The notes beneath the pieces were generated by a model, which was not told the DNA's origin, did not search any database, and saw only the letters and a program-made list of their open reading frames with translations. From NCBI GenBank assembly GCA_046563655.1, contig CM102284.1, forward strand, positions 8,928,001 through 8,992,000: 64,000 nt of DNA, given 5' to 3'. Every line of letters begins with the position of its first letter. Within the stretch, counting starts at the first letter, position 1. The position numbers and the translations under genes are program-made. Shown in pieces: positions 3,033-57,000 of the stretch. The DNA comes from Yuukianura sp. NJ FZ-2021 (Eukaryota).

Positions 3033-4014
3033 ATGTCGTGTGCTATGACTATTTTAGTACTAATTTTCGTTTTAGTCTTTTGGTCAAGTAGGGTCAAAGG
3101 TCATGGAAGGTTGATGGAACCACCGAATCGCTCTTCTGTGTGGAGATTCAAGGAATTCGAGTCTCACAATCCCCCGGTTAACTACAACGACAACGAGGTT
3201 AACTTAATTAACTTCTAAATTTAACTTTAATTAACAAAATTGTTAACAATTAGTAATTGAATGAGTCTATTTTTAGTTATCCTGCGGTGGAGTTGCAAAC
3301 CAGTACATTAGGAATTCGGGTCAATGCGGTCCTTGCGGTAAATTTAACATTGCACTTTGGCATTTCATGACCTTTGACCTTTCATTCAATTCTAATTTTA
3401 AGTTTTCACTTCTTTTAAATAGTTTTAACTTTCAGTTTTAACTTTTTTTTTTAACAAATTTAACTTTTTTTTAACAATTTTAACTTTTTTACCTCTCAGG
3501 TGACCCCTTCGATTTTCCTATGCCGAGACCCAACGAAAATGGAGGAACCTATGGACGCGGAATCATCGTTCGAAAGTACTCGGCTGGTCAAGTAATACTG
3601 TTGGAATTTTGAAAATTTTGGTTTTGAAAATTTTGAAACCTTGAAATTTTGAAACTGTTTTCATTTTTTCTCCAGAAAATTCCAGTTGCGGTTGAGTTGA
3701 CCCGGAGTCACTTGGGCTACTTTGAGTTCCAGCTCTGTCCGCTCGTCACTCCGAAATCTGACGGTTCGGAGGCTTGTTTTGGTGAAAAGCTAGGATTAGC
3801 TGATGGTTCTGGCACAAAGTACTACGTGTCTACTCTAGCCACAGGATGGTTCAACATGACCTTGACCTTACCCCAGAGGTCATGTCCCCACTGCGTCCTT
3901 CGGTGGCACTACAGAACAGCCAACTCCTGGGGAAACTGTCGCAATGGAACGGAAGCCCTGGGATGTGGGGACCAAGAAGTGTTCCGAGGCTGCGCAGATA
4001 TTTCTATCACTTGA
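3033..4014 (+). CDS. AA15-type lytic polysaccharide monooxygenase, copy 1 (4 exons)
   Basis: Signal peptide followed by His1 (VKG|HGRLMEPPNRSS), then CGG...CGPCGD, ELTRSHLGYF (second His), CVLRWHY and GCGDQEVFRGCADI. TATAAA near 2958. Confidence 0.92.
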
Positions 4015-4307
4015 CAAGTATTTCGATGCTGCGCAAATATTTCTGAGGTCACACGAGTCATTCGAGGTCCCTCCTGACTCATTTTCTGCTAAAATTTGCA
4101 AAAAGTTGCAACAAAATTTGTGTCAAAGTGACAAATCTGGAATAAAATTGTCATTGAAAGAGCAAATGGAGGCTGTTGAGGAAGGTTTCACTCTTCCAGA
4201 ACATTTAGAGTGTGGTTGGTACTTAATACAAAGTATAAATTATGTAGTTAAGTTGATTCAGTAAGGTTAGTGATTAGGTTATGTCATAGTTTGCCAAAAT
4301 TTTCATA

Positions 4308-54000: not shown

Positions 54001-57000
54001 AAATTGTGGGAGCCTTTTCGATCCGTATTTTGGAGTAAAAAATAATGGGAGCCTTTTTGCTCTGTGCTGCGAAGGCAAAAAAAAAATTGTTGGAGCCTTT
54101 TTGGTCCGTACTTCGAAGACAAAAAAATTTTTTTGGGAACCTTTTTGCCCCGTATTGTGGAAGAAAAGAAATACTGAAGAAATTTGAACTTTCACTTTGG
54201 AATGGAAAGAATTCAAAAGAAAAAATTCCTCTTCAATGTTCCAGGAAGCATCTGGAAGAGTCTCACCACACTAAAAACCTAATGTTAGGTTTTTGGTTAG
54301 GTTAAGAAGTAGGTTTCGGTTAGGCTAAAGTTATTTTTTGGCTGAAGTGGTTTCTCAGTTCAGAAAGAGAACAGCACCAGTTGTCCGTGTGACTTTTACT
54401 GTGCTTTATTTTCTGGAACTGACTCTCCAAAAAGAATAACAGTAAAAAGCTCATGATAATCTTTTTCATTTTTCAAAAAAAAAATCCCTTTTTTGAAAAA
54501 GCAACAAAGTACTTTTTCTTTTAGAAAGAAGCGGGAATTCTTTTGGCGGAATTTCAACTTTCCCTTTTGAAATTCCAGCTTTCTTTGTTTCCCATTTTCG
54601 TTTGTTTCAACATTTCGCCATTTATTGTTCCTTTCTTTGTCTTTTTTTGGCTCAAAAGATTTGAAAATTTCAAAAAGTTCAAAAAATGCTCTTTTTTCTA
54701 TGTTGTTTTGTAATAATTTCATCTTTTCACATCAAATGCGGTGCTTGATCAAACGACGTACTGCTGAAATTCCTGTTTACGGTTACTGCTGTGCGCTTTT
54801 GAACAACTTTTTTTAAAAAGCCTCAGCAAAAACCATTTTTACTTTCTTTTTTCAAAAAAAAAACTGAAAAGTAGCCATTTTGTACCAAAAAACGGCAATG
54901 TCAGCACACTTTGCGAGTCCTTTGAGCACTTCCTGTTCAATTCAAGTGCAAGTGAAACACCGCTAACGGCCTCCAGCACAGCTTAAAACTCTGGCCAGCC
55001 TTCCACAAAATTTAGAGTCTCTTCTAAAACTGTTTTTAGAACACTTCTAACCTGTTTCTAGAACAAACTGCCCAACAGTATGATTTCGGATAGATTATTA
55101 GTTTCTGGGGCTGTGCAACTTTTTTTTTCAAGTTTTTTGGTCAAAATTTTCGATTTTTTTTCTTTTTCGTTTTTTTTTTCACGTTTTATGATGTTTCAAA
55201 CATTTCTACTATGTTTTTCCTTTGGTTGCAGGATCGTCCTGTGCGCCAAAGCCTGTGCAGCGTCCTGCGTCGCAACAGCAACCTCAAATGTCTCATCCTG
55301 ACGTTCCTGATTCATGGGTGCCTCGTGGCCATCATTTGGTGTCGAAATACGCAAGTTACTAAAATCCTATTGGACTTTGACGCTTTTCCAATTACGAGGT
55401 AATTCCACTTACTACTGCTTCCTCATCTTTTATTCATCGCAACTTCCCTCTCCTAACTTCTACTCACCATTTACAAATTAAATTGCACTTAACTTTCACA
55501 ATTTCACGCTTGAAAACGAACAAAATGAGGTTAGTTAGAAAGCACGAAGTTCTGTGACCTTTGACCTACAGTCGGCAGCACATTGACCTTTGCCCCTAAA
55601 GTGTCTTAGTACCTCTTTTGCAGAATTTCAAAATTTTGAAAATCTTGGAATTTGGCAATTTGAAATAAAGTATTTTTGAAATTCGATGCTTGAGGTAGTG
55701 ACAGAGAGAAAGTTGTTTTGAAACTCGAAACCAGCGAAATCCAACTCTTCTTTCAAATTCGAATCGCTGGAACGAAGTTTTTGAAATGAAAATCGCTGGA
55801 ACCCAAACCTCTCGCTGTGCAAATTCAAAATCGCTGAAATCAAAATTTCTCTCTGTTCAAATCGAGAATCGCTGAAACCGAAATCTCTTTTTGGACTGAA
55901 ACTCGTGAAGTAACTCAAAATCGCATTTGAGGAGAAATAGACTGGAGATTTGTGTTTTCACTTTGAAAATGTACAGAGTACTGCATTATCTATTTACGTT
56001 AGTTTTTGTGTAGAAAGAGAGAGAGGAAGCTTGAGGAAACACTTTGTGCTCTGAGGTTTGTTGACATTGAGGTTGTTAGCAAATGGTCTTAGTATACGTG
56101 TTGAGCTTACCCACGTTCCCACGTCCCACCGAGAACCCACGGACCCCACCGGTAGACAGAGTAAACAAACTGGAACTTTGTTTGCAATTGGAAATTGTGG
56201 CTTAGAGGAACTCCCAAACCACAGGGGAAAGTACAACCTTCTGAATTATCAATTAGTTCTGTGTACTTTATCGAGTTAGAGTAATTGAATTAGTTTTTAA
56301 ATAATATAATAAAATAGATTAATTTTTACATAATTAAATGTTTCAGAACGAGGCAAGTCTCTCCGTGTGACGATGGAGTGGTGTACATCCCTACTGCTTT
56401 TGTGGTCATGCTGTACCTTCTCTATTTAGTCGAATGTTGGCATTCCAAAGCAAGAGTTCAACTCAGTTTACCAAAAGTAAGGAACTTTTGGAGGTTTTAC
56501 AAAAATTTTGAATAATTTTGAAAATTTTGAATTTTACATTTTTTTTTTCAAAGACTGGAGTAAGTACAGTGTACCGTCAAATTCAGGAAATGCGTGAAGC
56601 CCAGCCGATCGTTTGGTGGAAAGCAATTTGCTACCACTACACACGCAGAATTAGACAAGTTACGCGCTACAGAAATGGAACTGCTTACACTTCTTCCCAG
56701 GTAAAAAAAAAAACTGAAATTTCAACCATGAAAACAAAATTTTGAAGTTTATTCAAAGTGTTGTGGAATTGAACAACAATTTGAATGTAGAAAAGTAAAA
56801 ATCGAATTCGAAATTGAAAATTCTGGAAATTTTTACTCTTGTTTTTAAAGTTTTCACTTTTTGACTTTCACTGTATAAAGTTGAATTGAAGTGACACTGC
56901 TCGCCTACTTTTTAAGAGTAGATATTTTTTTGAAATGTGAAATTTTGAAAAAGTATAAAAATGACTACATAGAGGTAAGGTTCGTGGTGGAATTAAATTT

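Follow-up and report, generated by a model that had tools for sequence, protein, structure and literature searches.

A nuclear-receptor-type DR1 13-mer and its half-site are over-represented in coding and non-coding sequence of a springtail-like genome window

The DNA analysed here is a single 64-kb window of the Yuukianura sp. NJ FZ-2021 assembly (GCA_046563655.1, contig CM102284.1, positions 8,928,001 to 8,992,000), a gene-dense stretch with short introns from a springtail-like genome. A search of both strands for the 13-mer AGGTCAAAGGTCA (AGGTCA-A-AGGTCA), a direct repeat of the half-site AGGTCA with a 1-nt spacer (DR1), returned 14 exact copies (8 on the + strand and 6 on the - strand), corresponding to one per 4.6 kb. 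All of them were found where an original prediction, made by reading the letters of the window, had placed them. The gene map was obtained by a Pfam scan of 248 stop-to-stop open reading frames (ORFs) of at least 70 codons each. It comprises a KH-domain gene (about 1.9-2.6 kb, +), five tandem LPMO (AA15-like) paralogs (3.0-15.4 kb; 3000-15450, +), Piwi (15.9-19.6 kb, -), a carboxylesterase-family (carboxylesterase/neuroligin-like) gene (21-25.6 kb, -), a gamma-tubulin-complex gene (about 29-31 kb, -), two P450 (CYP) genes in tandem duplication (33.8-38.9 kb; 33786-38967, -), an ASNSD1-like gene (43.96-45.9 kb, -), a glycosyltransferase-8 gene (47-49 kb, -) and TMEM151 (55-57.6 kb, +). No receptor gene was detected in the window by the Pfam scan of its ORFs. 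The best named matches of the ASNSD1-like ORF came from the springtails Allacma fusca and Orchesella dallaii (47% by BLASTP, 49% by alignment), and two further protein relatives reached 61-64% identity.

Five of the 14 exact copies are located in ORFs, five in introns as judged from the splice sites and four in upstream or intergenic DNA, with mixed orientation relative to the host gene. DR1 elements would be expected to be confined to regulatory DNA acting on a particular gene; the copies observed are distributed over ORFs, introns and intergenic sequence in both orientations, as anticipated by the claim that the word is superimposed on unrelated genes. In the LPMO cluster, the copy at 3368..3380 (-) lies antisense in an intron of paralog 1, 30 nt past the 5' splice site following the CGPCG exon, and the copy at 4648..4660 (-) lies, again antisense, 19 nt past the 5' splice site of the homologous intron of paralog 2. 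Behind the CGxCG exon, the introns of paralogs 1 and 2 both contain TGACCTTTGACCT and that of paralog 3 has one TGACCT, the rest of their sequence being dissimilar; paralog 4 has no intron at this place. Paralog 2 also has the intronic copy at 5172..5184 (-), which stops 11 nt short of the 3' splice site and is part of a 7-nt array of 2.9 units (5171-5190). The copy at 7477..7489 (+), between paralogs 3 and 4, is probably intergenic or within an untranslated region. Coding sequence is reached at 8935..8947 (+), where the motif encodes E-VKG-H at the signal-peptide/His1 junction of paralog 4. The motif had been predicted to cover the signal-cleavage/His1 codons of both paralogs 1 and 4; this holds for paralog 4, whereas in paralog 1 the site at His1 (3091..3103, +, encoding VKGH) is the one-mismatch form GGGTCAAAGGTCA and the exact copy at 3368 is intronic.

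In the carboxylesterase-family gene, the copy at 24703..24715 (-) is in sense orientation and lies where an intron minisatellite ends, 31 nt ahead of the 3' splice site. CYP copy 1, a gene on the - strand, has the copy at 36194..36206 (+) about 20 nt in front of its likely ATG, and CYP copy 2 has that at 38955..38967 (+) in the same upstream position. The two upstream regions share 84% identity, and the DR1 belongs to this shared sequence; these sites are one duplicated copy, as had been suggested. The copy at 40074..40086 (+) falls into a 137-codon ORF (40011-40421; RSKVK), and the one at 40658..40670 (+) encodes SKVKGQ in a non-conserved linker of an ORF whose two homologues show about 50% identity. 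An intergenic copy (43831..43843, +) lies between two genes of the - strand, about 120 nt past the stop codon of the ASNSD1-like gene and about 300 nt before the ATG of the following one. Downstream of a glycosyltransferase-8 exon, the copy at 47089..47101 (+) reads LTFDL in antisense orientation within a 122-codon ORF (46959-47324, -). The presumed coding status of the 47089 and 40074 copies is taken from their open frames, since no homologue turned up for ORF 46959-47324 (searched against longer proteins) or for ORF 40011-40421. The copy at 48744..48756 (-) lies in the first ORF of the glycosyltransferase-8 gene, where it encodes EVKGQ between the membrane anchor and the catalytic domain in one open frame and forms the centre of a half-site array (48738-48769). 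The last copy (55555..55567, -) is antisense and probably intronic, between TMEM151 exons. The peptides VKGH, SKVK, VKGQ and LTFDL that had been read from the motif are indeed those given by the reading frames.

Nine sites in the window differ from the 13-mer by a single letter. Apart from the site at 3091 (originally given as 3090), they comprise the third unit of the array at 5171-5190 (5179..5191, -), ATGTCAAAGGTCA at 13531..13543 (-), a form with spacer G at 14057..14069 (+), AGGTCAAGGGTCA at 32614..32626 (-), a form with spacer C at 42824..42836 (+) and three sites (14812, 14836 and 14861) in the short intron of LPMO paralog 5, which is built almost entirely of half-sites (14812..14880). 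This intron also harbours two perfect palindromes of the sequence AGGTCAATGACCT (14843-14855 and 14868-14880) in a 25-nt tandem duplication. AGGTCAATGACCT is the idealised form of the inverted repeat spaced by 1 nt (IR1); the third of its perfect instances in the window (48173-48185) is formed by the first two of four exact half-sites (48173..48214; starts at 48173, 48180, 48190 and 48209) in a Pfam-supported coding exon of the glycosyltransferase-8 gene. Direct repeats lacking the spacer (DR0; AGGTCAAGGTCA) occur at 3857..3868 (-) inside an LPMO1 exon, at 10180..10191 (-) inside a 319-codon ORF (10019-10975), at 50279..50290 (-) and at 58567..58578 (+), and two half-site clusters (60209-60344 and 60530-60603) are found within 60209..60603. 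Of the near-matches listed originally, those at 3091, 14057, 14836 and 32614 are thus genuine one-mismatch sites, whereas those at 50279 and 58567 are DR0 forms and that at 60571-60602 is a half-site cluster.

The number of exact copies was compared with several backgrounds. A uniform model yields about 0.002 copies, the value given initially, and dinucleotide shuffles yielded 0.01. Markov models of order 1, 3 and 5, which were trained on the window itself with the motif copies included and simulated 20 times per order, gave 0, 0 and 0.05 copies, respectively. With 14 copies observed against 0.05 expected at order 5, a higher-order background leaves the excess standing. Sites with zero, one and two mismatches number 14, 9 and 8. 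In the nine one-mismatch sites, the changes are confined to positions 1, 2, 4, 7 and 8, with none in the 3' GGTCA, a pattern noted post hoc on nine sites. An A precedes 10 of the 14 exact copies and follows 8, and three copies have it on neither side.

The excess extends to the half-site. AGGTCA/TGACCT is the most over-represented hexamer of the window (129 occurrences against 25.5 expected at order 2), and GGTCA is the top over-represented pentamer. Every one of the sixteen 4-kb bins contains half-sites (2-15 per bin), and 34% of the gaps between neighbouring half-sites are 30 nt or shorter, against 6% under random placement. Among the 18 one-letter variants of AGGTCA, GGGTCA alone is clearly enriched (34 against 14.2); AGTTCA shows no enrichment (62 against 67) and AGGTCT is depleted (6 against 20). 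The 129 half-sites are preceded by A in 70 and by G in 40 cases, and followed by A in 68. Their pairing is restricted to a few arrangements: 16 exact same-strand pairs are spaced by 1 nt (14 of them with spacer A) and five by 0 nt, with at most three at any other spacing up to 30 nt, and three exact inverted pairs have a spacing of 1 nt. When one mismatch was allowed in the partner, 18-22 DR1, 10 DR0 and 11 IR1 pairs were obtained, against 0-4 for other spacings and everted pairs (0.6 expected). The 13-mer is the peak of this wider half-site bias. The window thus contains a direct repeat of RGGTCA with a 1-nt spacer, a purine (R) at position 1 and a defined spacing and orientation, as is typical of receptor-type elements; RGGTCA together with DR1, IR1 and a more constrained 3' half-site corresponds to the pattern described for nuclear-receptor DNA-binding domains.

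The bias is equally apparent in coding sequence. Half-sites number 44 in long ORFs (18.1 kb), where 7.9 are expected, and 82 in the remainder of the window, where the expectation is 17.2, so that the excess is about 5-fold in both and affects both strands; every reading frame is used except the one reading TGA. In a set of 37 ORFs (20,088 nt), 51 half-sites were counted (30 sense and 21 antisense), the counts being slightly inflated because stop-to-stop ORFs take in some intron ends. Shuffling of synonymous codons with the proteins kept gave 12.9 +/- 3.2 half-sites (maximum 23) and shuffling of codon order 8.3, and in neither case was a value of 51 reached in any of 1000 shuffles. The two types of shuffle place most of the excess in synonymous choice and a smaller part in amino-acid adjacency. 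Relative to 200 synonymous shuffles, AGGTCA, GGTCAA and TGACCT occupy ranks 1-3 among the 4096 hexamers. Exact 13-mers occur six times in these ORFs (0.22 expected; at most two over 2000 shuffles), although the copy at 24703, counted among them, is situated at the edge of an ORF and probably belongs to an intron. The half-site excess is also present in the Piwi and ASNSD1 ORFs. Codon-pair bias is ruled out by the use of all non-stop frames on both strands. The element therefore behaves as an over-represented word, found in coding and non-coding sequence on both strands and fitted in by codon choice, and the bias acts on DNA, not on proteins. The proposal that it shapes protein sequence is borne out by the excess in ORFs (51 against 12.9) but needs qualification, since the excess lies mostly in synonymous choice and the 40658 copy is in a non-conserved linker.

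As controls, at least 70 metagenome loci were collected that matched with an alignment of the ASNSD1-like gene; these were mostly bacterial asparagine synthases, with some arthropod-like ones. Among the listed loci, the best of the eukaryote-like ones had 41-55% identity over their best segment; the two protein relatives with 61-64% identity did not appear. The 70 listed loci (733,453 nt) contained no exact 13-mer, and none of them had five or more AGGTCA at three or more times the expectation. A scan of viral contigs with a 14-mer found 117 stretches; of the 80 listed, 77 had a single hit and three were tandem or double, a chance-like pattern. A literature search at the level of abstracts found no report of the 13-mer in springtails, in genome-wide surveys of invertebrates or as an over-represented word, and none of a comparable excess in an invertebrate that is not transposon-borne.

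The exactness of the copies may at first look suspicious and raise the question of an assembly or polishing error, or of sequence added to the window. This explanation has a negligible probability in our view. The stretch 38900-48800 is present in five DNA runs of two studies, with a share of sampled words of 0.41-0.83. A read-derived Logan contig covering 38923-39528, including the 38955 copy, shows no difference from the window, and a second one (43283-44375), including the 43831 copy, shows two, both outside the motif. Because independently assembled read-derived contigs carry it, the 13-mer is not an assembly artefact; the match was shown letter by letter at 38955 and 43831, and the other six motif sites in 36000-55900 are covered by contigs. 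Contigs of four runs from the two studies differ from the window at 853 positions in these 19.9 kb, which reflects either a very polymorphic population or runs that mix close lineages; of the 40 differences listed, none touches a motif position. An origin from repeat debris, be it transposon fragments or micro- or minisatellite seeds of 6-7 nt spread by slippage, is very unlikely but has more in its favour. The 13-mer is nearly two units of AAGGTCA, an A frequently flanks it, two sites are short 7-nt arrays, the introns are rich in local tandem repeats (108 rows in the output of TRF), and the array 48738-48756 is a point where contigs from other parts of the genome terminate. Against it stands the comparison of the motif-masked flanks (150 nt on either side) by blastn, in which only one of 91 pairs was related, namely the CYP duplication, in agreement with the earlier statement that the copies share no other flanking sequence. 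Furthermore, TRF reported period-7 arrays at only two of the 14 exact sites, leaving 12 that are not arrays, and an exact 20-mer of three units was not found in the window. With related flanks in one of 91 pairs and arrays at two of 14 sites, the copies derive neither from one transposon nor from a microsatellite. A simple 7-nt duplication cannot explain the three copies lacking an A on either side and would break the reading frame, yet open frames carry copies, and IR1 palindromes are beyond the reach of slippage. Given the CYP duplication, the number of independent origins is at most 13, and lower if the LPMO intron pair is ancestral. A transposon footprint or 7-nt target-site duplication was rejected as well, considering that open frames host copies and that three of them have no flanking A. 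Telomerase-type addition was discarded because it cannot yield DR0 or IR1, and a splice-site or branch-point signal because both orientations occur and copies are also found in exons. With the excess persisting over a higher-order background, the copies not being fragments of one transposon and the coding half-sites exceeding synonymous shuffles, the original observation is confirmed, and its interpretation as a genome-wide code superimposed on genes is supported in part.

What maintains the word was weighed between three further explanations. Ordinary gene-specific response elements, by which clustered genes with a metabolic or gut function (LPMOs, P450s, esterase) would be controlled by HNF4, USP or a related receptor, would account for the five of 14 copies in the LPMO cluster, for the two about 20 nt upstream of P450 start codons and for the retention of the 13-mer in the homologous LPMO1 and LPMO2 introns, with a half-site in LPMO3, despite their otherwise unalike sequence. 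However, copies also lie in or beside the ASNSD1-like, glycosyltransferase-8 and TMEM151 genes and an unknown gene, five are in ORFs, the half-site excess pervades the Piwi and ASNSD1 ORFs and all 16 bins, and an excess at synonymous sites on both strands is unlike the output of enhancers, so that this explanation is unlikely. A stronger contender, although still rather doubtful, is a molecular drive without organismal function, in which biased repair, mismatch correction or gene conversion, possibly linked to a protein, would convert near-cognate sequence to the word, or a motif-bearing allele would be preferentially transmitted, so that the word accumulates in all compartments. It is favoured by an excess of the same size inside and outside long ORFs, seen on both strands and in every stop-free frame, by the action mainly via synonymous positions, by the surplus of exact over near copies and by the location of coding copies where the protein tolerates change. 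A single anecdote from the ASNSD1-like gene points in the same direction: a two-letter polymorphism at 44554-44555 makes or breaks an extended half-site, with AAGGTCA (Lys) in the window and two adjacent other letters (Pro) in all four runs compared. This change cannot be polarised, however, with relatives having Pro or Arg. To account for the receptor-like grammar of the pairs, drive would need guidance from a receptor-like protein. Motif-writing drive of this kind is, to our knowledge, not known in animals, and no paper on it was found among the abstracts searched.

Our favoured interpretation, to which we assign a probability of roughly 40%, is that the 13-mer is a lineage-specific bulk-binding word for a putative DR1-type receptor-like protein. 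The half-site RGGTCA would be the genomic word and the 13-mer its preferred paired form, the word being kept well above expectation in the DNA itself, be it coding, intronic or intergenic. A sequence-specific, dimer-type reader is inferred because no simpler process predicts the combination of DR1, DR0, IR1 and R at position 1; that such a protein exists, which one it is and what its occupancy of the 13-mer would bring about are all deduced from the arrangement of the sites. The reader would be an abundant protein that recognises DNA with the sequence specificity of a nuclear-receptor dimer preferring DR1, candidates being USP/RXR, HNF4, Svp/COUP-TF, the HR78/TR2-4 class or a protein copying such specificity. 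Its occupancy may serve a bulk role at the scale of chromatin or chromosomes, as a sink, an architectural element or a chromosome mark, instead of a gene-by-gene hormone response, and sites would be favoured where they are tolerated, that is at synonymous positions, in variable protein linkers, in short introns and in upstream DNA. The genome-wide extent of the word is an extrapolation from its even spread in the window and from the outside contigs that end at the array 48738-48756. In PMC4314640, a preference for the 3' half-site is reported for RXR on DR1, matching the invariant 3' GGTCA observed here.

Several points weigh against bulk binding by a receptor. Functional receptor sites are normally degenerate, yet the 14 exact copies outnumber the nine with one mismatch. 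PMC4314640 also describes the RXR DNA-binding domain as binding natural DR1s better than the idealised symmetric DR1, so that selection for RXR affinity would not obviously choose this word. The excess in ORFs is uneven, with 15 large ORFs holding 23 half-sites against 7.0 expected and five of them holding none. Moreover, about two half-sites per kb under site-wise selection would impose a heavy load, which favours drive. Selection for bulk occupancy and drive are nevertheless compatible, since repair could be biased by a bound protein. A broader formulation is that a receptor-type word is actively introduced or retained throughout an animal genome, also in coding sequence, either by a sequence-specific transmission or repair drive or as a chromosome-scale code read by a nuclear-receptor-like protein, making it a eukaryotic counterpart of bacterial uptake and Chi words that does without a transposon; we put this forward only tentatively, as a possibility with the odds against it.

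Among known systems, the DR1 elements of nuclear receptors (RXR/USP, HNF4, COUP-TF/Svp, TR2/4-HR78) are closest in sequence, the idealised DR1 being identical to the 13-mer. According to PMC4314640, they also share the (A/G)GGTCA half-site, the use of DR1 and IR1 and the more constrained 3' half-site. The likeness is one of sequence; the exact copies here differ in occurring once every 4.6 kb, in both orientations and with little degeneracy, within ORFs and introns as well as between genes, and AGTTCA, which the published consensus allows, is not enriched. The nearest animal precedent for receptor-type sites in very large numbers is found in human Alu repeats, for which PMC3252374 describes very many, mostly low-affinity HNF4-alpha sites and discusses a possible role as a receptor sink. 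Those sites were spread by a transposon, whereas the flanks in the present case are unrelated and the copies are perfect matches to the consensus.

Bacterial genomes contain exact words far above Markov expectation in coding and non-coding sequence, fitted in by codon choice like the word described here. These include the uptake sequences DUS/USS, Chi, HIP1 and the biases left by very-short-patch repair; they are prokaryotic and maintained by DNA-level processes with known machinery, such as uptake receptors, RecBCD and Vsr. We know of nothing comparable in an animal. The MEX motifs at rex sites of C. elegans and the MSL recognition elements of Drosophila resemble the 13-mer in being dense short motifs; they mark a large chromosomal territory for a protein complex, being enriched on one chromosome and mostly non-coding. 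The hotspot motif of PRDM9 is likewise a 13-nt word, but its recombination-linked transmission bias erodes the motif, whereas the word analysed here is in excess. Protein-binding words of animals are known to reach high copy numbers by riding transposons and bacterial words by DNA-level processes; a perfect receptor site occurring once per 4.6 kb with unrelated flanks and a synonymous excess of half-sites on both strands would represent a third route, in an animal. If the word were genome-wide, it would offer a tractable system to ask whether transcription-factor-type proteins shape base composition and codon choice, provide a test for the existence of motif-level drive in animals and raise the question of whether a nuclear receptor took on an architectural or chromosome-marking role. 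In practice, any attempt to find receptor targets in such a genome by scanning for motifs would be overwhelmed by hits.

Further observations concern the genes and repeats of the window. The ORF at 40402-40866 (+) had only two clear homologues among 1.84 billion representatives (E about 3e-23, ~50% identity), both of which begin at its Met31, and seems to encode a small protein restricted to the lineage. A coding minisatellite (21180-21349, -) with a 33-nt unit in 5.2 copies, which gives repeated ARNADSIPLLP-type peptides, is located in the C-terminal ORF of the carboxylesterase/neuroligin-like gene. Introns and spacers are made of short local A/T-rich tandem repeats, for instance at 8140-8336, 12276-12315 and 24707-25276. 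Frequent repeat words are AAATTTTGAA (65 times), arrays of CTAAAAGTTTTTGA[CT] and one 16-mer (12 times), and the TRF rows total 108 over the 64 kb. The second most over-represented hexamer is TAATTA (108 against 35 expected), which occurs mainly within intron repeats of the TTAATTAA type.

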